The notes under the pieces are model-generated. The model saw only the letters and a list, made by a program, of their open reading frames with translations, did no database searches and was not told the origin of the DNA. Both the position numbers and the translations under genes were made by a program. From an uncultured Thermodesulfobacteriota bacterium (GTDB lineage Bacteria; Desulfobacterota; B13-G15): a stretch of 64,000 nt of DNA. Shown here in pieces: positions 527-18,224 of this stretch; position 1 is the stretch's first letter; every line of letters begins with the position of its first letter. The stretch is taken from contig CAZIZI010000002.1 in the NCBI GenBank assembly GCA_964543765.1, positions 11,153-75,152 on the forward strand, given 5' to 3'.

Positions 527-1306
527 ATGACTCACCATTATCAAAACATTTTATATGAAATAAAGGATCAGGTTGCTAGAATCGTGATTAACAGGCCTCC
601 TTATAACGTGTTAGATATACCCACAATGCGCGAGATGGTAGATGCTTTAAAGGATGTAAGGGCTCGTCAGAAGGAGGTGAAGGTTCTGCTTATTACCAGT
701 GCAGGTGAGAAGGCCTTTTCCACTGGTGTGGACGTGAAGGATCATATGGGTGACAAGATGGAAGAGATGTTAGAGGTCTTTCATGATATTTTTCGAGTTA
801 TGGCGACCCTGGAGATTCCTACGGTGGCGGCGGTGAGGGGACACGTATTAGGAGGAGGTTGTGAGGTGGTTATGTTCTGTGATATGGTAATAGCCAGCGA
901 ATCGGCCAAGCTCGGACAGCCCGAGATAAAAGTAGGGGTTTATCCTCCGGTTGCGAATTCTTATTTGCCGAGGATTATACCGATGAAAAAGGCCATGGAG
1001 TTAATCCTTACCGGTGACGTGATCTCGGCCAGAGAAGCCGAAAAGTTGGGTCTCGTTAACGTGGTGGTACCCGATGATAAGTTTGAGGAAGAGGTGGAGA
1101 AGTTCCTTAAGAGGCTTACTGAAAAGAGCGGAATAGTGTTGAGGATTACCAAGAGGGCCATTTTAGCCAGTTTAAATGTTGATTTTGAAACCGCCCTTCA
1201 AAATAACGAATTGATTTATAAATACGCCTTGATGAAGACCCATGATGCTAATGAAGGACTTGAAGCATTTGTGCAAAAGAGGCAGCCACAATGGAAGAAC
1301 GAGTAA
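527..1306 (+). CDS. enoyl-CoA hydratase/isomerase (crotonase) family protein
   Basis: 259 aa. Crotonase-fold motifs (AAVRGHVLGGGCEV, oxyanion-hole region). RBS aaaggaggg upstream of the ATG. Confidence 0.85.
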   Translation: MTHHYQNILYEIKDQVARIVINRPPYNVLDIPTMREMVDALKDVRARQKEVKVLLITSAGEKAFSTGVDVKDHMGDKMEEMLEVFHDIFRVMATLEIPTVAAVRGHVLGGGCEVVMFCDMVIASESAKLGQPEIKVGVYPPVANSYLPRIIPMKKAMELILTGDVISAREAEKLGLVNVVVPDDKFEEEVEKFLKRLTEKSGIVLRITKRAILASLNVDFETALQNNELIYKYALMKTHDANEGLEAFVQKRQPQWKNE

Positions 1307-2076
1307 TCACCGTAGGCATTGATGTGGGATCTATCACTACTGAAGCCCTTGTTTATGAACCACAAAGGGGAATCCTCGGGTATTCGATACTTCTTACCGG
1401 GGGTTCGAGTTATGAAGCGGCTTCTTTAGCTTTAGAAAAGGCTTTGATATTTTCAGGGATTAAGAGGGATGAGGTTAAGAGGATAGTAGCTACCGGTGCT
1501 GGACGAGGGATAGTTGATTTTGCTCACAAAAAAGTCACGGAGATAACTTGTTTGGCCCGAGGGGTTCATCACCTCTTTCCGGAAGCGAGGACCGTCATTG
1601 ACATTGGCGGACAGGATACCAAGGTTATAAGGATTAATGAAAAAGGGCAAGTCGTGGAGTTTGATATGAACGACAAATGTGCCGCGGGGACCGGCCGGTT
1701 TTTAGAAGTTATGGCAAGAGCTTTAGGAGTAGAACTTGATAAAATGGGAGAGATATCCCTTCGGGCCAAAAAGGACTTAAGCATATCCAGCATATGCACC
1801 GTTTTTGCTGAAAGTGAAGTAGTCTCGCTGGTCTCTCAAGGCGAACAGGTAGAGGAAATACTCCGAGCAGTTCATAAGGCCATAGCGAAAAGAACCGTTG
1901 GGCTCCTGGAGCGCATAGGTGGAGCCAACCCCCAAGTGGTGATGACCGGAGGTGTGGCGAAGAATATTGGCGTTGTGAGGGCATTGGAAGAAGAGATCAA
2001 AATGCCTTTGACGGTTTACTTTGAGCCACAGATAGTATGCGCTTTGGGAGCCGCCCTTTTGGCCCAAGAGGCTTAA
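1291..2076 (+). CDS. CoA-substrate-specific enzyme activase (BadF/BadG/BcrA/BcrD / HgdC family ATPase)
   Basis: 261 aa. N-terminal ITVGIDVGSITTEALV actin-like ATPase motif and DKCAAGTGRFLE, as in HgdC/BcrAD activators. Overlaps the crotonase gene by 16 nt. Confidence 0.8.
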   Translation: MEERVITVGIDVGSITTEALVYEPQRGILGYSILLTGGSSYEAASLALEKALIFSGIKRDEVKRIVATGAGRGIVDFAHKKVTEITCLARGVHHLFPEARTVIDIGGQDTKVIRINEKGQVVEFDMNDKCAAGTGRFLEVMARALGVELDKMGEISLRAKKDLSISSICTVFAESEVVSLVSQGEQVEEILRAVHKAIAKRTVGLLERIGGANPQVVMTGGVAKNIGVVRALEEEIKMPLTVYFEPQIVCALGAALLAQEA

Positions 2077-3832: not shown

Positions 3833-3913
3833 AATTTATCGTTGACGAAATATTCTTAAAATTGTTAAATATTGCCAATGGATTTTCCTAAAATCGAACG
3901 TTTTTGAAAAAAA

Positions 3914-3940
3914 CTTTCTCCTGAGGAGAAAGAATTTTTA
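3914..3940 (+). terminator. rho-independent terminator downstream of ssrA
   Basis: Perfect 8-bp stem ctttctcc/ggagaaag with a 3-nt loop, followed by aattttta. Confidence 0.6.
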
Positions 3941-3967
3941 CTATTTTTTCTTTTCCTTCCCAAACCT

Positions 3968-6935
3968 GTGACAATAGATTTGCTCAGTTCAGCCACCGGT
4001 ATTCTAGTAACTCGTATTTTGAACGTGATGGAAAAATTTAAAAGGAGGGGGTTTGTCCTTGAAAGGAAAGATTTAGGGCGAGGAGTATATGCGATTAAGG
4101 ATTCTTTGAGATGGAGGGAAGCGAAAGACTCACTCTCTTCTGAAGAATTTTCCCTGTTTGTGGAGCGTTTGACAAATTTTTATGAGCAGAAAGATACAAG
4201 AGACGAAGAAACGAAAATAATTTTAGCAGAGTTATATAAATACACTTCGATTAACTTAGAACGTTTAGAGATTATAAAAGAAGTAGCCGATTTGTTTAAT
4301 AAAGGTCCTAATAAATTAAAAGCTGTTGAATACTATGATTGCATTATTAAATATTTTGAAAAGAAAGAACCTCGTACCGAAAAAGAAATTGAGCTATTTC
4401 TGGAAAGTATTATAGCAAAAACTTTTACATTGATGCATAAAATGGCAGCTCAACAGCAGATTGACCTATTAAAAAAAGCAAAAGATATAGCGGAGAAAAA
4501 TAATCTTTTTGAGAAGTTAGCTTTAATAAGCTTACGTTTAGCGAGAGCTTACCAGGATCTTGGTTTATATCAGGAATCTTCCAAATTTATTGAAAAATTC
4601 ATCCGGTTCTCAAAATATATTGAAGATATTAAACGTATAAAGTTGGCTTCCCATTGTTTGAGTGAATATTATGTTTGGAAAGGCAGATTTAAAGAAGCTA
4701 TCAGTTGTTATGAAAAACTAATAGGCAATATTGAAGAGTTCGAAGATGATGATAACGCTCTTATGGCAACACAGTTAATAGGTTTTACTCATGTGTTATG
4801 TGGTAGAGTTTCCCGTGGATTAGGAATGATTGAGGCAGTGATGAACAAGGCCCGCAGCTTAGGTTATGAACAAGTTGTTAATTATTGTCATCAAGCATAT
4901 GCCATATCTTTTTTAACATTACAAAAAATTGAGGAAGCGAAACCCCATGTTGAGGTTCTTTTGTCGTTTCCGGAAGAGGTTTTGGGTGACATTCTCTATT
5001 GGGCTGTTCTGATTCACAAGGCTTACATTTTGTGTCTTGAAGGGGATTTGGAGAGTTCATTTTCGCTTTTGAAAAAGGCGATGGAGTTTCAATTTAAGAA
5101 AAACAGAATTTTTACTCCCTATCCGTGGCTGTTTGAGACAGTTCGCATCTTGGAGAGCAAAGGTTTTTGGGATCAGGATATAAATTTGGAGAGGATGATT
5201 CAGCGCTTTATGGAACTGGATGATGTTTATATTCGTGGTGTAGTCCTGCGATATAGGGGTTTAAAATTTTTAGAAAATGGAGATGAGCGAGCTTTAGGTT
5301 GTCTTCTGAGCAGTGAAAGGTATTTGAGATATGTCGGGGCGGAGGTGGAATTAGCTAAAACAAGACTCTGGTTGGGCAAGTATTATCTGGCTAAAAATGA
5401 GGTAAAGAAGTCAAAACCTTACTTAGAAAAGGCGTGGGAGGTATTTTCTGCAGTTCAATCATCCCTTTTCCCTCCAGAGTTAATAAGTTTAGTTTCTCCT
5501 CAACAACACGCTCAAGCGATTATCAATAGAATAATAAAACTCACCGAAAACCTGGGAGGCGGTAAAGATGCCCTTTCTTTTTTGGAAGAGGTTTTAAACA
5601 CAGCCATGGATATTACCTTAGCTATGAGGGGTAGCATTTTGAGAAATATTCAGGAGGATTTGACCATTATAGTGAGCAGAAATGTATATCCCGAGACATT
5701 TTGGCAGGTGGTTTTAAAACTTATTTGATGGAGGCCGTTTTAAGAGGAGCGGAGGTTGTGAAGAGGGCGAAGGAGAGCGAGAAGGGCCCCTTTTTGATCA
5801 TACCAATGAAAGTTAGTGGTAAAAGTTGGGGATGTCTTTACTTGGAAGGAAGGGTTGATAACGAGGATTTTTCGCCTGATATTGTTCTGTTTGTAAAGAT
5901 GTTATGTGTTCAAGCAGCATTGGTTTTAAATGCTCTAACCTTACAAGAAGAGTTTGAGAAACAGCAACAAATCCTGACTCCTGAATTTCCTGAGGATGAA
6001 ATTTCCATAATCGGAGAATCGCCAGCTATAAAGAGGGTAATAGAACAAATAAAACAAGTAGCACCAACGGATGCAACGGTTTTAATTTTAGGAGAAACGG
6101 GCGTTGGAAAAGAGCTTGTAGCGCGTACTATACACGCTAAAAAGTACTCGGAGAAATGGGCCTTTTATAGCGGTTAACTTAGCTGCTATTCCCCAAGAGC
6201 TTATCGCGAGTGAGCTTTTTGGCCATGAGAGGGGAGCTTTTACAGGGGCTTATGAAAGGCAAAGAGGATTACTCGAACTTGCAGACGGGGGGACTGTGTT
6301 TTTTGATGAGATCGGAGATTTGCCGTTGGCAATTCAAGTAAAACTCCTAAGAGTGTTAGAGGAAGGGGTTTTTACAAGGCTTGGAAGTGCAAAACCTATA
6401 AAATCGAATTTTCGCATTATTGCTGCTACGAACAAGAATTTGGGGGAAGAAGTAAAAAAGGGTAACTTTAGACAAGATCTTTTTTATAGGTTAAATGTGT
6501 TTCCCATTTATATTCCCCCTTTAAGAGAGAGGAAGGAGGATATAATTCCGCTTGCTTTTTATTTTTTAAAAAGTTTAGCGAAAAGTATGGCAAAAAATCC
6601 GAAACATTTCCAATTTAGAATTGAGCAAATTATTAAATTATCATTGGCCGGGAAATGTAAGAGAATTGAAGCACGTCATCGAAAGAGCTGTTATTTCATC
6701 CAGCGGTTCAACTATAAACTTTGTATTTGATATTTCTTTGAATAAAACACAAGTCGAATCAAAGGAGGTTGTAAAAACCCTCGCCGAAATAGAAAAGGAG
6801 CATATAGAAAAGGTTTTGAGTTTGACCGGTTGGCGCGTGAGTGGCACGAAAGGAGCGGCTAATTTATTAGGAGTAAAACCCTCCACTCTTAGATTTAGAA
6901 TGAAAAAACTAGGTATAACACGTCCTTGCGTTTAA
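3968..6935 (+). pseudogene. sigma-54-dependent transcriptional activator with a long N-terminal TPR-like helical sensor, GAF, AAA+ and Fis-type HTH domains. Interrupted by at least 3 frameshifts (ORF pieces 3968-5728, 5701-6177, 6296-6730, 6621-6935).
   Basis: The GAF domain is split across the 3968 and 5701 ORFs. AAA+ motifs: GESPAIKRV...GETGVGKEL / (frameshift) / [11 protein letters not shown]...[13 protein letters not shown]...[14 protein letters not shown]...VRVIAATN / (frameshift) / [19 protein letters not shown]-terminal HTH AANLLGVKPSTLRFRMKKLGI. Restoring one A in gagaaatggg gives ...[11 protein letters not shown]. Confidence 0.75.
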
Positions 6936-7005
6936 AATTTAAAAAATTTGGCAAAATTTTGCGCCTTTTTTAAATTACCAGGAATTAAAGGATAAAAATT
7001 TTATG

Positions 7006-7020
7006 TGGCACGATTGTTGA
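7006..7020 (+). promoter_or_regulatory. candidate sigma-54 (-24/-12) promoter for the 7061 operon
   Basis: TGGCACGattgTTGA matches TGGCACG-N4-TTGC spacing with a C-to-A change at -12. Lies ~40 nt upstream of ATG 7061 and its RBS aaggcggaaggagg. The 12-bp palindrome gcaaaattttgc at 6951-6962 is a possible activator site. Confidence 0.45.
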
Positions 7021-7060
7021 TAATTCTTCGTGTAAAGTAAGGCGGAAGGAGGTTTTCCTT

Positions 7061-9649
7061 ATGCAAAAATATAGAAAGCTTCTTGAACCCCATTATATAG
7101 GGAAGGTAAGGACGAGAAATCGCATTATAAAAACTGGTGCGGCCATGAACTATTGGCATAAGGATGATACGAAGATGGACCCTAAGGCTCTATCCTTTTA
7201 CGAAAATCTTGCCCGAGGAGGTGTTGGTCTTCTTGTGGTGGAGTCGCCTATTGTGGATTATCCCTTGGGAGGCCGATGGTCCAATAGGTATAGATTGGAT
7301 GAAGACATTTTTATCGAAGGAATGGCCCAACTTGTAGAGGTTATGCACAAGCACGGTTGTCCTACTTTCATGTTAATGTGGCACGATGGGCCTTGGCAAA
7401 ATCCCTTATTTCCGGATGTTCCTCCCTTATACGATGGTCCCCCCGTAGGTTCGTATCCCTTAAACCTTCCTACTCCGCTTGATTTCCATAGGGACATCCC
7501 TAGGCAGTTAAGTGTTGCGGAGATAGAGGACATTATAGATAAATTCGCATCCGCTGCCCTTAGAGCCAAAAAGGCTGGATTTGATGGAGTGGAGATAAAT
7601 GCGGCAAGTAGTCATCTTTTTCATAATTTTCTCTCGCCCTTTTGGAATCGAAGAGAAGATGAATATGGAGGTAATACCGAAAACAGAGCAAGGATTTTAA
7701 TCAGAACGGTAAAGGAAATCAAAAACAGAGCAGGTAAGGATTTCCCGGTTTCAGTCATTATAAACGCCATAGAGATGGGAAGGGCTTTGGGAATGGATGA
7801 TAATCAATGTCTTACCTTTGAAGAGGCAAAGAAAATAGCCCTTCTTTTACAGGAGGCAGGGGTTGATGCTATCCATGTGCGAAGTCATTGGCTCGGGTAT
7901 CACGTAGGCGGGTTTTTACCAGATTATCTCTTTTACCCGGAGCCACCTGTTAGGAAGTTTCCGGAGCTCTATAATTGGAGGGAGAGAGGAAGAGGAGCTA
8001 ACATTTATTTGGCAAAAGAATTAAAGAAAATCTTATCCATTCCCATCATAGTTGTGGGTAAGATCGATCCTCCGCTTGGAGAACAAATTCTTCAACGGGG
8101 TTACGCTGACTTTATAGCGATGAATCGGCGACTTCTCGCTGATCCAGAACTTCCTCGAAAATTGGCTGAAGGAAGAGAGGATGAAATAGCTCCCTGTACT
8201 GCCTGTGGAACTCGTTTGGATCAAAGCAAAGGGATGCAAAGGCGGTGTAGGATAAACGCCACAATGGGCAAAGAAGAGTTCCTTATTAAAAAAGCCGAGA
8301 AGAAAAAAGAGTTCTCATTGTGGGAGGAGGGCCTGCGGGAATGGAAGCATCAAGAGTAGCGGCTTTAAGAGGACATGAGGTGATATTGGTGGAAAAGGAA
8401 AATAGGTGGGTTATTGCCCTTAGCTTCCTTGATAAAAGGATTAGAAATAGAGGATTTGTCAGCTATAATAAAGTACTACAAAATAACTTTAAAAAATTAG
8501 GAGTTAAAATAATCACAAAAAAGGAAGCTGATACAAATTTCGTTAGCACTATAAAACCAGACGTAATCATTTTAGCATGTGGTGGTAAATTTCGGACTCC
8601 AGAAACTATTACTTCAAAAAAGAAAAAGATTATAACTGCTCCAGAACTTCATAAAAAAAGCGAAAATATTCCTTAGAATATTCGGCCCCAGATTTTTAGG
8701 ATGGTTAACAAGGTTTTGGCTCCCTATGGGCAAAAAGGTTGCCATAGTCGGAGGATCACTTCAAGGATGCGAGCTTGCAGAGTTTCTCGTGAAAAGGAAT
8801 AGAGAGGTTACAATAATTGAAGAATCAGGAAAAATAGGGGAAGGAGTAGTTGATTTTCGTTTAGCTTTACTATTGGATTGGTTCTCAAAAAAGGGAGTAA
8901 AGATTTACAAAAATGCAAAAGTCGAAGAAATTAATGATGAAGGTGTTGTAATAAATCAAAATAATCAGCAGATATTAGTTCCTGCTGATACGATTATTAT
9001 ACTTTCTCCTTTATTACCAAATATCGAATTATACAATTCATTTAAAAGATATGTAAAAGAAATATACGCTATAGGTGATTGTAAAGAACCAAGTTTAATA
9101 GTTGATGCAATACACCAAGCTTGGGAAATTGTAAGACATACCATGACCATAGAAGATCTTCAAAGAAAAATAGTAGAACTTGAACAAAAAATAAAAGAAT
9201 TAGAAAGTAGAGTTCAGATTTTAGAGGATATTAATGAGATAAAAGAACTACAACGTCGATATGTAGATGCTTTAATATGCACTGAATGGGATGAATGTGC
9301 TGAATGTTTTTCGGAGGATGCGGTAGTTGATGTATACTTGCATAAACCTGTGCATGGAAAGGAAAATATTCGTCGGTGGTTTAAAGAAGAACTTTCCAAA
9401 ACTCATGCAGGGAAAGAGGGAGATTTTGTAGTGCATCCCATTGTAAAGGTTGAAGGTGATAAAGCCAAAGGAAGGTGGTTGCTTTATATGATGTACATGT
9501 ATCCGCGGACAGGTCAATCATTGTTTTGGGTTCAGGGGTATTACAAAAACGAATATGTGAGGGAAAAAGGGAAATGGAAGATAAGCCTTATGACTTGGAC
9601 TGAGCGTTTAGGATTACCTGGAGGAGGTCCCCCTACTGGTCTTTGGTAA
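7061..9649 (+). pseudogene. NADH:flavin oxidoreductase (OYE TIM-barrel + 4Fe-4S + FAD/NAD(P) domains, as in 2,4-dienoyl-CoA reductase or BaiCD/BaiH enoate reductases) fused to a C-terminal coiled coil and a SnoaL/NTF2-like domain. Fragmented into ORFs 7061-8359, 8320-8676 and 8726-9649.
   Basis: OYE motifs in the first ORF. GGGPAGMEAS FAD-binding GxGxxG at 8320. Second Rossmann GKKVAIVGGSLQGCELAEFL at 8726. NTF2-like C-terminus (RRYVDALICTEWDE...GKWKIS). Lesions: A6 run ~8296-8301, in-frame TAG 8674-8676, A5 run ~8730-8735. Confidence 0.75.
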
Positions 9650-9656
9650 TGGTGAG

Positions 9657-11703
9657 ATGGGAGAGCTAAAAGTTTTCATTAACGGTAGGGAAGTTAAGGG
9701 TAAGGAAGGGAGTACCATTTTAGAGACGGCTCTCGGAGCGGGAATTTATATTCCCTATTTATGTCATCATCCTAACCTCCCTCCCATAGGGGAGTGTGGA
9801 TTATGTGTGGTTCGAGTTAATGGGATGGGGTTTGTTAATGCATGTGATACTTTAGTTGAGGAAGTGATGAAGATTGTAACCGAAGACGAGGAGATTGCGT
9901 CTCTTAGGCGAGAAAGGCTTACCGGTTTATTGATGTCACATCCTTTGGAATGCATAGGCTGTTGGAAATATCTCAAATGTGAACTTCAAGCTTTAAAGCA
10001 ATACGTCGGAATTAATCGAGTTGAGGTTTTAAAAGGGCGTCCGAGGTTCATAGAGATTGAGGAAGATAATCCTCTCTTTGAATATGATCCACATAAATGT
10101 GTTCTTTGCAAAAGATGTGTTAGAGCCTGTAAAGACTTGAGGGGATTGGGGATTTTAGAGGTAAAGGAAAAAGACGGAGTCCGATACATATTTACTCGTT
10201 CGGATTTACCGCTGGCTGAGGAGGGATGTAAGTTTTGTGGTTTATGTGTAGAAGTATGTCCTACAGGAGCTCGGAGGGATAAGGTAGAAATAAATACAAT
10301 GGAAGATAATAGAAAAAGGACATTACTTCCTTGTAAATACAATTGTCCACTTGAAATAGATATACCGCTTTTCGTTCGACTCATTAAAAGGGGGATTACG
10401 ATAAGGCCTTAAGAGTTATAAAAGAAAAAACTCCTTTGGTTGAAGTGTTAGGTCATATTTGTACCCATCCCTGTGAGGATGCTTGTAGGCGTAATCATTT
10501 AAGTGAATCCATTTGCGTTCGAGAACTGAAGAAATTTGTCGCTCAAAGGGCTTTTTATACCTCTTCAGTTAGGAAAGACAAGGGAAAAAGGGTCGCTATA
10601 ATTGGCTCCGGCCCAGCTGGTTTAACAGCGGCTTATTTTCTTAGGGTTTTAGGATATAGGGTTACCCTCTTTGAGCAGATGGCATTTTTGGGAGGTATGT
10701 TGAAGATAGGGATACCTTTTTACAGGTTACCTCGGCGGGTAGTGGATAAGGAGATTGAAGAAATTCTCAAATTGGGCATTAAGGTTGAACTAAAAAACGC
10801 GTGGAGAATTTGGAAGACCTTTTGATCAAAGGTTTTTCGGCAGTAATAATAGCCATAGAAACCCAGCGGCCTATAGTGCCGGATTTAGTGAGGTGGAGGA
10901 AAATTAAAGATGTTCACTTAGGGCTTGATTTTTTACGAGCTTTTAACTTGGGTGAAGGAGTAAAATTAAGGCAAAAAGTTGCGATAATCGGAGGAGGTGC
11001 TAGTGCTTTCGATTGCGCAAGGGTCGCTTTAAGACAAGGAGCTTCGGAGGTCCATATCTTTTGTTTGGAAGAGTTTTCCGAAATGCGCGTTAATAAAGAG
11101 GACCTTGAAGAAGCACTTTTGGAAGGAGTAGCCATTCACAATCATAAAGCGCTTGTTCATTTAGATGAAGTATCTGATAAGCTCCAATTGGTTTTCAGAG
11201 ATGTGGAAAGTTTTGAATTTGATGAATTGGGAAGGCTCGACCTGAAAACCATTCCGGGATCAGAAAGATCTTTTTTCCTTCGAAGGAGTGATATTTGCCA
11301 TAGGACAGATTCCGGAAGTTCCCTTGGGATTCAAGGTTAAGCTTAAGCCATGGGTACCATTGAGGTAGATCCCTTTAGCCTTATGACTTCTAGAGAAGGA
11401 ATTTTCGCTTGTGGTGATGTGGTGACTGGGACAAGGTCAGTAGCAGAGGCCTCTGCGATGGGAAGAAGAGCAGCTTTAAGTGTGGACGAGTTTTTGGGAG
11501 GAGATGGTTTGAAGGAATTAAAAGATCTTCAATATGTGCCTACATTCTTTTCCGAAAAGAAGGGAGGATTTGCATATTTAAGAAGACCCAAAGGGGAGTT
11601 TAGTATAAAAGAGGCCACTTATGAATCAAGTCGTTGTTTGGAATGTGACCTTAGGTTCCAACTAATGGAGGTGAAGTTCTGGCCAGCATATGGAAAGCCA
11701 TGA
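9657..11703 (+). pseudogene. 2Fe-2S ferredoxin + 4Fe-4S dicluster + GltD-like FAD/NAD(P)H oxidoreductase fusion (NfnB / glutamate synthase small-subunit-like). Fragmented into ORFs 9657-10412, 10436-10825, 10801-11340 and 11350-11703.
   Basis: CxxC...C 2Fe-2S motif, two CxxCxxCxxxCP motifs, then the GltD signature CTHPCEDAC and AIIGSGPAGL. Frame breaks at G5 (~10391-10395; adding one G gives ...IKRGDYDKALRVIKEK...), at A5/A6 (~10789-10794), at a T6 run (~11270) and at a G3 run (~11350). Confidence 0.7.
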
Positions 11704-13139
11704 AGCTCATTGAGACCGAAGTAGCCATTATAGGAGCTGGAGCAGCGGGACTTGCAGCTTCAATCGCTGCAGCAGAAAGGGGGGGTATCGGTCGCAGTTT
11801 TCGAAAAAGGAGCCACCACCGGCGGGACAGCTAATATGGGAATGGGATTGTTTGCGGTCGAAAACCGTCACCAGAGATTTCGGCAGATGGGACCAAGTCG
11901 CGATGAAGCTTTTAAGGTTTTTATGGAGTTTATCCATTGGCGTGTGGATGCCCGTTTGGTTAGGGTTTATATCGATAGATCCGGCGACACGATCCATTGG
12001 CTCGAAAACATGGGCGTTGAGTTTTTAGAGCCTATGGCTTATTTCCCGGGAGGATGGCCTACATGGTACATAGTGAAACCTGGCGGTTCTCCCGGTTGTG
12101 CTGCTAATATGTGTAAAGCTATGACTTATAAAGCAAAGTCACTTGGTGTAAGTTTTCATTTTAAAACACCCGCTAAAAGATTGATAAGGAAGGGTAATAG
12201 AATTATAGGATTTATCGCAGAAACACCAGAAGGTGAAGAGCTTTTAGTAAGAGCAGGTACGGTTATTATTGCTACAGGAGGGTTTGGAGACAATCCCGAT
12301 TGGATAAAGAAATATACCGGATACGAACACGAAAAGGATCTCATTACCTTCAGGGTTTCAGGTCTTAAAGGTGACGGAATAAGGATGGCGTGGGAAGTGG
12401 GCGCTCTTTCCACTCCTATGAACATGCAACTCATTTATATTGTACCAGGCGAAGTTCATCCTAAATTAGCGGAGGCTTTTAGGCAACCTCACTTATTAGT
12501 CAACTTAAGAGGGGAGAGATTTGTTAACGAAGGAATAATATTTAATTCAACGTTTATAGGGAACGCAATATCGCAACAACCCAAAAGAATAGCCTTTATG
12601 ATCTTTGATGAGAAAATTAAAGAGCACATGAAGAATGTGGGTTTAGATTTTATTCATGTTCCTTTTCCGTATTTTAAAGTAGAGGACTTCGATGATTCGT
12701 TTTTTGATTCGTTAAAGAGATGTAAAGAGACTCTATTTGTGGCTAATTCTATCTCAGAACTGGCTCAAAAAGCGGGCATAGACGAGAAGGGGTTAGCGAG
12801 GCAAGTGGAAGAATATAACGAATTTTGTAGTTGCGGGTTTGATCCCGTTTTTAACAAAAACCATCGTTATTTAAGGCCTATAAAAAACCTCCTTTTTATG
12901 GCGCGAAGCTTATGCCCGCATCTTACGAGAGCTTGGGAGGTATAAAGATAAACTACAAAATGGAAGTAATAGGTGAAGATTATAATCCATTGAGAGGGCT
13001 ATATGCAGCAGGTACAGATGTTAATTCCATAAATGGTGATTCCTATGTTTTCATTTTGCCTGATAATACCATGGGGTTCGCGGTGAATTCTAGTCGAATA
13101 GCAGGGGAAAACGCTGCTGATTTTGTAAAAGGCAGATGA
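11701..13139 (+). pseudogene. FAD-binding dehydrogenase of the fumarate reductase/succinate dehydrogenase flavoprotein (FAD_binding_2) family, 3-oxosteroid 1-dehydrogenase (KstD)-like. Fragmented into 11701-11832, 11752-12945 and 12912-13139.
   Basis: N-terminus MKLIETEVAIIGAGAAGLAASIAAAERG breaks at a G7 run (aaagggggggtatc, ~11786-11792). C-terminal piece GLYAAGTDVNS...RIAGENAA is typical of the family. Second break at T5 (cctttttatg, ~12893-12897); T6 restores ...NLLFYGAKLMPASYE.... Confidence 0.7.
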
Positions 13140-17250: not shown

Positions 17251-17854
17251 ATCCTTATGTACCCCGGATAAATGCCCAGGTTTTGTCTATTGTCAGGAGG
17301 GTCTGTGTGCTGGGATCGATGAGGCAGGACGAGGGCCGTTGGCCGGTCCGGTAGTGGCAGCTGCTCTTATCATCAATCCTAAGGAACTTGTTTCCGAGAT
17401 AAGAGATTCCAAAGCCTTGAGCCCGAAACTTCGGGAAGAGCTTTACGCTTATCTTATTTCCCGAGCTCGAGCTTGGGCCATTTCTTCAGTAGGGCCGAGG
17501 ACTATCGAAAGGATAAACATACTTAATGCCTCTTTACGGGCTATGCGTCAAGCGGTTCAAAAACTCAAGTTAAGGCCAAAGATCCTCATAGTAGATGGCC
17601 CTTATGCCATTCCCAAACTGGATATCCCTCAAATTCCCCTTATCGATGGGGATGTTCGATGCCCACTCGTTGGGGCTGCCTCAATTTTGGCCAAAGTCAC
17701 CCGGGATCGAATTATGGATCATTATCATAAGCTGTTTCCCCAATACGGTTTCGATCGCCACAAAGGTTATCCTACCGAAGAACATCGCAAAGCCCTAAGG
17801 CAATTCGGCCCCTCTCCCATTCATAGACGGAATTTTAAGGGCGTAGGTGAATAA
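17225..17854 (+). CDS. rnhB: ribonuclease HII
   Basis: [18 protein letters not shown] and DSK motifs. The exact start is uncertain (overlaps the rplS end). Confidence 0.85.
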
Positions 17855-18224
17855 AAGGAGACTGGAAGAAGAGGCTGAGAGATTGGCGGAAGTATTCCTT
17901 AAGAGATCCGGCTATACAATTCTTCAAAGGTGGCCAAATAGACCTAATCGCCGAAGAAAGGGGGATACTCGTATTTGTAGAGGTTAAAGCTAGAAGATCT
18001 AAGGTGTATGGTTTACCTTATGAGGCGGTTACCCGGAGAAAAATTAAAAAATTAACTCAAGTAGCCCTTCATTATTTACAAAGACATGGATTATATGAAG
18101 ACATGGATTATATGGGAAAGTACCAGTGAGATTCGACATAGTAAGCATAGAGCTTTATCGAGGTGAGCCAATTATAGGAATAATCAAAGGGGACTTTTTT
18201 TTTGGAATAAACCGGGTATTTTGA
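17849..18224 (+). pseudogene. yraN: YraN-family (UPF0102) endonuclease, disrupted
   Basis: GTG start overlapping the rnhB stop. ...LEEEAERLAEVFLKRSGYTILQR | frameshift | GQIDLIAEERGILVFVEVKARRSKVYGLPYEAVTRRKIKKLTQVALHYLQRHGLY | 17-bp tandem duplication | VPVRFDIVSIELYRGEPIIGIIKGDF.... Confidence 0.65.
18083..18116 (+). repeat. 17-bp tandem duplication inside yraN (gacatggattatatgaa / gacatggattatatggg)
   Basis: Two adjacent near-identical 17-nt units. Deleting one restores the YraN frame (...LQRHGLYGKVPVRFDIV...). Confidence 0.8.

Follow-up and report, generated by a model that had tools for sequence, protein, structure and literature searches.

The segment at 7061-9649 of the window (i.e. 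the whole 64,000-nucleotide (nt) stretch of contig CAZIZI010000002.1 from an uncultured Thermodesulfobacteriota bacterium) is, with a probability that we put at about 0.85, the remnant of two adjacent genes, a frameshifted ene-reductase and an intact NTF2-like gene, joined by a 15-bp deletion in a decaying operon. An earlier note made from the sequence alone had read the segment as a single enzyme, in which a flavoenzyme of the Old Yellow Enzyme (OYE) type continues in frame through a coiled coil into an NTF2-like (SnoaL) domain. On our reading the fusion is a pseudogene artefact, and the region should not be annotated as a new multi-domain protein.

The reading frame is not continuous between the barrel and the NTF2-like part. 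The + strand contains three consecutive open reading frames (ORFs) rather than one, at 7061-8359 (432 amino acids (aa)), 8320-8676 (118 aa) and 8726-9649 (307 aa), and there are four frame changes at approximately 8302, 8402, 8490 and 8653, detected by three-frame translation, by tblastn with an intact ortholog and by DNA alignment. The OYE barrel and the FAD/NAD Rossmann domains recognized earlier are nonetheless confirmed by Pfam. The first ORF contains an Oxidored_FMN barrel (PF00724, E=1.7e-49) at 7061-8356, the second Pyr_redox_2/Pyr_redox, and the third Pyr_redox_2/Pyr_redox followed by SnoaL_4 (E=1.3e-22, residues 165-289). Correction of the frame gives a reductase of 696 aa plus an NTF2-like protein of 168 aa. 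The reductase ORFs share a 90%-identity protein cluster with an intact 696-aa protein, P0241, from which the frame-corrected reductase differs at 35 positions. In the orthologs P0241 and L004 the FAD and NAD(P)H Rossmann domains lie in one unbroken frame, whereas in the window they are interrupted by the frame changes.

The 4Fe-4S motif of the OYE/FadH-type Fe-S flavoenzymes is present as had been proposed, but with only three of its four cysteine ligands. The third is arginine, so that the motif reads C-x2-C-x2-R-x11-C. That position is at least 98% cysteine in an alignment of 121 homologs, including the sister allele P0241, while the CGT codon is found in all five assemblies of the lineage to which the window belongs (the window, L008, L013, L014 and L019).

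Lesions were defined by reference to contigs L009-L012, which carry P0241 and P0246, both labelled candidate division WOR-3. P0246 is a 168-aa NTF2 protein that, like P0241, falls into one 90%-identity cluster with ORF sequence of the window. These contigs are syntenic with the window (recG-ECH-BcrAD-ftsY-smpB-[cluster]-ffh-rpsP), with 95.5-96.2% nt identity, and the sister allele L009 (95.5%) has intact genes for proteins of 1019 aa (regulator), 696 aa (reductase) and 168 aa (NTF2). Relative to L009 the reductase gene of the window has four frameshifting changes, whose positions are given in the table with those of the other features. The last, an additional A at 8651-8657, causes the TAG at 8674-8676 to be read, and hence the split into ORFs of 118 and 307 aa. 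This TAG, which ends the 118-aa ORF, had been correctly noted. The net change in length is -6 nt, and the first and last ORFs are in the same frame.

The junction between the two genes has a simple origin. The 15 nt missing from the window are TATATAAAGGAGGTG in L009, which supply the reductase with its last codon and TAA stop and the NTF2 gene with its Shine-Dalgarno site; in L009 the TAA stop and the ribosome-binding site AGGAGGTG are both in place. Because the deletion is in frame and took all three elements, the reductase and NTF2 frames have become fused.

Coordinates of the features discussed, in the numbering of the window
Feature	Coordinates	Strand	Basis
Pseudogene, TPR + sigma54-type AAA+ activator + HTH_8 regulator, ~1019-1031 aa when intact	3884..6935	+	tblastn with L004 ortholog, alignment with L009
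Putative control region	6951..7020	+	read from sequence
Pseudogene, OYE barrel/[4Fe-4S]/FAD/NAD(P) ene-reductase of the FadH-BaiCD-NCR family, 696 aa frame-corrected	7061..9142	+	Pfam, cluster with P0241, alignments
CGT codon, Cys385Arg, third ligand of the C-x2-C-x2-C-x11-C [4Fe-4S] motif	8213..8215	+	alignment of 121 homologs
Frameshift 1, A7 to A6 (1-nt deletion), ends first ORF at 8359	8296..8302	+	alignment with L009; common to window, L008 and L013
Frameshift 2, 5-nt deletion (TGATT in L009), no change in homopolymer length	8398..8406	+	alignment with L009
Frameshift 3, A7 to A6 (1-nt deletion)	8486..8496	+	alignment with L009
Frameshift 4, A6 to A7 (1-nt insertion), only in window and L019	8651..8657	+	alignments
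7-nt inverted repeat with 4-nt spacer (AATATTC CTTA GAATATT), coincidental	8665..8682	.	shuffles, frame reading
15-bp deletion junction (9138/9139)	9136..9142	+	alignment with L009; identical in window, L008, L013, L014 and L019
Intact SnoaL_4/NTF2-like gene, 168 aa, long N-terminal helix + alpha+beta cone, own ribosome-binding site gone	9143..9649	+	Pfam, AF2, Foldseek, alignment
Pseudogene, NuoG-N-terminal-like (2Fe-2S/4Fe-4S) + GltD-like flavoprotein, 688 aa in L004	9657..11703	+	Pfam, NCBIfam, tblastn
Pseudogene, FAD_binding_2 soluble flavoprotein, fumarate-reductase/KstD/vinyl-phenol-reductase superfamily, 478 aa in L004	11700..13139	+	Pfam, NCBIfam, tblastn

These comparisons are consistent with the following course of events. 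The ancestral operon, of a bacterium like candidate division WOR-3, would have been sigma54-controlled and would have encoded a reductive catabolic function, with a 696-aa ene-reductase, a stop codon with a ribosome-binding site, and a separate 168-aa NTF2 protein; the sister lineage still has this arrangement, as does a distant Thermodesulfobacteriota metagenome-assembled genome (MAG). In the lineage of the window the reductase gene has suffered three shared frameshifting deletions and the Cys-to-Arg loss of an Fe-S ligand, to which the window adds the insertion in an A-run. The 15-bp deletion accounts for the read-through "fusion" by removal of codon, stop and Shine-Dalgarno site, and the regulator and two downstream oxidoreductase genes of the same operon are frameshifted as well. 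A full-length fusion protein cannot be made. The most that translation could yield is a 307-aa fragment, consisting of part of the NAD domain and NTF2, or else the 168-aa NTF2 protein, and only the latter would be a native product.

In relatives the NTF2-like gene stands alone. Homologs were sought among 5.8 billion clusters, keeping the best 120 for the NTF2 half and the best 120 for the reductase. The best 120 homologs of the 307-aa ORF are all stand-alone proteins of 168-195 aa that match only its C-terminal half, with 61-84% identity, and SnoaL_4 (PF13577) is present in none of the best 120 reductase homologs, which are 661-727 aa long. We also surveyed 62 metagenome loci with enough upstream sequence, taking as adjacent an OYE-FAD gene that ends 10-230 nt upstream. 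In 28 of the 62 the 168-aa gene is directly preceded, on its own strand, by such a gene; a stop codon separates the two in all 28, and no pair is fused. In 30 of the 62 loci the 168-aa family occurs with no adjacent OYE gene. The pair is adjacent also in a Thermoleophilia genome and other contigs, and near but non-adjacent in two more loci. The absence of any fused protein from both sets of best homologs and from the adjacent pairs argues against an OYE-FAD-NTF2 fusion as a functional architecture. The SnoaL domain is a separate gene in homologs, in a gene context that is related rather than unrelated.

The NTF2-like gene is itself complete. Translation from the ATG at 9143 gives exactly 168 aa, starting MTIEDLQ (compare the family consensus MT.EE), and the protein is 99% identical to P0246 and retains 53 of 53 family-invariant residues. 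The family also has a conserved C-terminal tail, GLPGGGPPTGLW. An AlphaFold2 (AF2) model of the 168-aa unit (predicted local distance difference test (pLDDT) 86.6, predicted template modelling (pTM) score 0.80) has a single helix at residues 3-45 leading into the NTF2 cone. Since the ATG at 9143 generates a protein of 168 aa that matches the start of the family, the "coiled coil" is the protein's own N-terminal helix, a feature that it has in common with BaiE and LdpA. The helix that had been described as a heptad-like coiled coil is thus present, but it is not a linker domain.

The proposed NTF2-like/SnoaL fold of the C-terminal domain is upheld by the Pfam match, and by structure prediction and Foldseek in agreement. 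Comparison of the AF2 model with the PDB using Foldseek places LdpA first (TM score 0.74), followed by BaiE (TM score 0.64-0.69; 4L8O, 4LEH and 4L8P). A search of PDB sequences with the NTF2-like protein gave E=1e-11 for LdpA and E=1e-8 for BaiE, and a profile search with the family gave 1e-12 and 4e-8 respectively, with the N-terminal helix aligned in both. The suggested likeness to BaiE is therefore real. No NCBIfam model was reached by the NTF2-like protein.

The damage extends to the rest of the operon. Aligned by tblastn with the intact L004 ortholog, the regulator falls into pieces in frames 2, 1, 2, (1) and 3, requiring at least four frame changes, and 1-nt indels relative to L009 are located at 5698, 6139, 6567 and 6591. 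The gene is intact in both L009 and L004. The NuoG/GltD-like gene matches L004 in frames 3, 2, 1, 2 and 1 (four frame changes), with a lesion at ~10800 that is common to the window and L009, and the FAD_binding_2 gene in frames 3, 1 and 3 (two frame changes). The last had been taken for a KstD-like dehydrogenase adjacent to the reductase. This assignment is not supported: the gene is frameshifted, and the best-scoring NCBIfam model is vinyl phenol reductase (200 bits, cut-off 600), outscoring the best KstD model (89 bits, cut-off 789). The G-run at 11776-11782 within this gene is G7 in the window and G5 in L009, while the frame of the intact ortholog implies an ancestral G6, so that independent mutations have lengthened this homopolymer in one lineage and shortened it in the other.

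A distant but intact version of the cluster, in the Thermodesulfobacteriota MAG (L004/L001), encodes the regulator (1031 aa), reductase (698 aa), NTF2 protein, a 203-aa protein, the NuoG-N/GltD-like protein (688 aa) and the FAD_binding_2 protein (478 aa). In the sister lineage the regulator, reductase and NTF2 gene are intact, and the two downstream genes are even more fragmented than in the window. Decay probably began downstream, in the common ancestor of both lineages, because at least one lesion, that near 10800, is common to both. We note separately that the gene for the 203-aa protein, located between the NTF2 and NuoG/GltD-like genes in L004 (10543-11154), is absent from the window (9649-9657) and from the sister lineage. 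Its product has a faint match to DAPG_hydrolase (the phloretin-hydrolase family) and no NCBIfam match.

The ratio of nonsynonymous to synonymous substitution rates (dN/dS) between the window and L009 is 0.03-0.23 for 11 flanking housekeeping genes. It is 0.25 for the regulator, 0.12 for the OYE barrel and 0.34 for the Fe-S/FAD/NAD part of the reductase, rising to 0.56 for the NuoG/GltD-like gene and 0.45 for the FAD_binding_2 gene. For the NTF2 gene the value is 0.07, calculated from only nine substitutions. We also observe that dS is 0.05-0.11 in the decaying cluster (3968-13139) compared with 0.10-0.25 in the flanking housekeeping genes, which is unexpected for neutral DNA. Recent recombination between the lineages or effects of codon composition are possible explanations.

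Several observations weigh against the interpretation of the segment as a mere remnant. The NTF2 gene is perfectly intact with a low dN/dS, so part of the locus may still work. The dN/dS of the OYE barrel is not raised, which means that the gene was inactivated recently or that the changes are too few for a judgement. The 15-bp deletion may predate the frameshifts, in which case a functional fusion may have existed transiently. Lastly, the substrate and chemistry that we suggest below for the intact system are drawn from family analogies.

The first of these points leads to an alternative that we regard as possible though rather doubtful, namely that the NTF2 protein is still made, whether translated from its original ATG (9143) or, as part of the 307-aa ORF, from 8726, and functions independently of the dead reductase. 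The intact 168-aa frame, its near identity to the sister allele with every invariant residue kept, and the low dN/dS would all fit this, and the loci at which the family lacks an adjacent OYE gene indicate that it can work in other contexts. However, the Shine-Dalgarno site has been deleted and the regulator of the operon is broken. At the local density of lesions (14 in 9.2 kb) a target of 504 nt has a chance of ~46% of escaping, so that intactness is weak evidence, and the small number of substitutions limits the weight of the dN/dS value.

Much less probable is that the genes are intact and separate in the real genome, and that a contig stretch of low quality generated both the indels and the fusion. 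Most of the indels are indeed changes in homopolymer length, and they cluster in one stretch of ~9 kb. Yet the same lesions recur elsewhere. Alignment of L008 (an ENA MEGAHIT k141 contig) and L013 (a Logan assembly) showed that both have those at 8302, 8402 and 8490, and the ORF calls in L014 (a JGI contig) are 432 aa plus 435 aa, the same as in L008 and L013. Over 5727-12649, L019 (another JGI contig) matches the window apart from two mismatches and a single additional G. All four have the identical CGT codon and fused junction. The same 1-, 5-, 1- and 15-nt changes together with the CGT codon are found in five assemblies from different samples and pipelines. The insertion of A at 8651-8657 is missing from L008 and L013 in alignment, and L014 likewise reads one 435-aa ORF, whereas L019 has this insertion and a further G at 8182. 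The alleles therefore form a nested series, from L008/L013/L014 through the window to L019, that random assembly error would not give.

Over 19 kb of alignment with L009 there are 33 indels, 27 of them within 5698-13053. Outside the cluster 30 ORFs have full-length Pfam domain coverage. Homopolymer runs of at least 6 nt are about equally dense outside and inside the cluster (2.65 and 3.35 per kb respectively), but the 145 such runs outside cause no breaks in the 30 ORFs tested. In addition, raised dN/dS is not expected from errors, and the sister lineage carries different lesions in the downstream genes. We reject sequencing error as the source of the frame breaks in view of the same lesions in independent Illumina-based assemblies and of the intact genes outside the cluster.

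Least credible of all is a genuine OYE-FeS-FAD/NAD-coiled coil-NTF2 enzyme in which the frame breaks are noise or are bypassed by programmed or transcriptional slippage at A-runs, since, for all that three of the four frame changes lie in A6-A7 runs, that the first and last ORFs share a frame after a net -6 nt and that the junction is in frame, a 5-nt deletion is no slippage, the third Fe-S cysteine is lost, the regulator and both partner oxidoreductases are broken too, the lesions recur in Illumina-based assemblies, the frame-restoring A is missing from L008, L013 and L014, and the best hits include no fused homolog.

The decay of two adjacent genes that we favor is of the ordinary kind for bacterial operons, by homopolymer slippage and small deletions. 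The regulator and all the large enzyme genes have been hit, and the lesions are concentrated in one dispensable operon, lineage-specific and nested, with relaxed dN/dS. The sole peculiarity is that one deletion has welded two ORFs in frame. The locus is a clean natural example of an operon in decay, which has taken alternative paths in two co-occurring lineages of a single uncultured species. One of these has lost the genes for electron input and the second reductase, and the other has also lost the regulator and the first reductase.

The closest parallel in gene order is the bai operon of bile-acid 7-alpha-dehydroxylation, in which the gene for an OYE-FeS-FAD/NAD flavoenzyme (BaiCD) is likewise followed directly by that for a SnoaL_4 protein of ~168 aa (BaiE). 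The analogy drawn earlier with baiCD-baiE is thus apt. The steroid/bile-acid or cyclic enoate toolkit that had been proposed for the window is dead, however, as its reductase is a pseudogene. The reductase matches the BaiCD model at E=4e-95, but the intact L001 ortholog scores 319 bits against a cut-off of 825 for the BaiCD equivalog (NCBIfam NF041087). With the long-form BilR model the reductase scores 343 bits against a cut-off of 750, and no curated equivalog was reached.

The alignment of the NTF2-like protein with BaiE is full-length and takes in the N-terminal helix, and the identity is 22-23%. We take the catalytic triad of BaiE to be Tyr30/Asp35/His83. In a hidden Markov model alignment the Tyr falls on the invariant Y40, and the Asp of the "LD" sequence on a hydrophobic residue; in this alignment the position of Asp35 corresponds to Ile or another hydrophobic residue of the NTF2-like family. 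The His region is ambiguous, near the invariant H88 and H98. Further differences from the bai systems are that the hosts here are environmental anaerobes (WOR-3, Thermodesulfobacteriota, Chloroflexota and Thermoleophilia) rather than gut Clostridia, that the other bai genes are absent, and that the copy in the window is dead.

By sequence and fold the closest solved structure is the diarylpropane lyase LdpA (PDB 8ABT-8ABW), with 25-28% identity; there too an N-terminal helix precedes the NTF2 cone. LdpA is a trimeric NTF2 enzyme that works without a cofactor. It has 235-263 aa, including insertions and an extended arm at the C-terminus from which the trimer is built (PMC9942872). By contrast, the proteins of the NTF2-like family are 168 aa in length and lack both arm and insertions, and the TM score normalised to the target is 0.52-0.53. 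LdpA acts moreover in the catabolism of lignin dimers by aerobic sphingomonads, without an OYE partner. The reductase belongs with the class of FadH, 2-enoate reductase and 2-naphthoyl-CoA reductase in that its intact orthologs have the Oxidored_FMN domain, the C-x2-C-x2-C-x11-C motif and two Rossmann domains. It differs in that no equivalog model was reached, and in the window copy being frameshifted and one Cys ligand short.

By analogy with these families we infer that the intact reductase would reduce an activated C=C bond in a substrate that is a CoA ester or a cyclic or conjugated carbonyl compound. Its NTF2 partner would perform acid/base chemistry (dehydration, isomerisation or a lyase reaction) upon the same scaffold, much as BaiCD and BaiE both act on bile acids. 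Coupling of C=C reduction with acid/base chemistry of the NTF2 type is the most likely function suggested by this comparison. Our literature search for characterised pairs of OYE and SnoaL proteins in anaerobes found no specific example.

Identity among the NTF2 proteins of WOR-3, Thermodesulfobacteriota, Chloroflexota, Actinomycetota, Acidobacteria and Firmicutes is 62-85%. We tentatively suggest that the OYE-[4Fe-4S]-FAD reductase and the 168-aa BaiE/LdpA-like NTF2 protein form a widespread, uncharacterised two-enzyme module or complex of environmental anaerobes that reduces cyclic enones or polyphenol-, terpenoid- or steroid-like compounds. If so, it would be an environmental counterpart of BaiCD/BaiE, and the dead in-frame weld would hint that the two proteins can be tethered. 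The pair of genes is in any event of modest interest, being frequent (28/62 loci), very conserved, parallel to baiCD-baiE, and experimentally uncharacterised in anaerobes. Should the chemistry be sought, the intact orthologs P0241 and P0246 or the L004 cluster would be suitable for expression, and not the copy in the window.

In one metagenome contig, L018 (42-1615 and 9001-14251), the neighbours of the homologous reductase/NTF2 set include SDR/ADH genes, two genes for Chalcone_N (bacterial chalcone isomerase), an electron-transfer flavoprotein (ETF) subunit and CoA-transferase subunits. From this context some members may act on compounds of the polyphenol or flavonoid type. One may speculate on a flavonoid or polyphenol substrate for the pathway on the basis of these Chalcone_N genes, the faint DAPG_hydrolase match of the 203-aa protein in L001/L004, and the vinyl phenol reductase model as best match of the neighbouring flavoprotein, but the 203-aa protein lacks any NCBIfam match and has no counterpart in the window. 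Longer SnoaL_4 paralogs of 280 and 220 aa lie directly downstream of other OYE-FAD paralogs, in L003 (2969-3811) and L018 (11144-11806) respectively. These share clusters with the 168-aa form, so that a single pathway cluster can contain more than one reductase/NTF2 pair.

Upstream of the reductase gene there is a perfect 12-bp palindrome GCAAAATTTTGC at 6951-6962, and an element resembling the -24/-12 sequences of sigma54 promoters, TGGCACGATTGTTGA, at 7006-7020, ~40 nt before the start of the OYE gene. From their sequence these may be a putative binding site and promoter for the adjacent TPR-AAA+ activator. The whole region is identical in L009, and a similar element, TGGCATGAATGTTGT, is found upstream of the L004 ortholog.

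The part of the segment at 8320-9300 had been described as AT-richer than its flanks, and the GC content does dip to 0.27-0.37 over ~8400-9300, compared with 0.42-0.48 in the barrel. For the barrel, FAD-NAD and NTF2 parts the values are 0.44/0.36/0.38 in both the window and L009, and 0.42/0.36/0.40 in L004. The presence of the same dip in the intact L009 and L004 rules out a horizontal mosaic or a signal of decay; high-GC homologs have no dip. The AT-rich stretch is the composition of a less constrained domain rich in Lys, Ile and Asn in low-GC genomes.

The sequence around the premature TAG (8665-8682) is not the perfect 18-bp palindrome it had been called, as the 18-mer differs from its own reverse complement. 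There are seven inverted repeats of the 7-4-7 type in the window, compared with 4.15 in shuffled sequences (range 1-8). In the ancestral frame the 18 nt encode KIFLRIF with the TAG out of frame, and AATATT is its own reverse complement. We reject the palindrome as a functional element at the TAG, since such repeats occur at chance level and this one is a by-product of coding.

Outside the cluster, the yraN-like UPF0102 gene at 17851-18200 (+) is also a pseudogene, the middle of the protein being in another frame. Compared with L009, it has lost 17 nt near 17930, and near 18097 a stretch of 17 nt (AAGACATGGATTATATG) has been duplicated in tandem. At 527-2076 (+), just upstream of ftsY and smpB, an ECH_1 enoyl-CoA hydratase gene overlaps that of a BcrAD/BadFG-type activator ATPase, both being intact. 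No cognate dehydratase or reductase subunit lies nearby, and the pair has been kept in both lineages.

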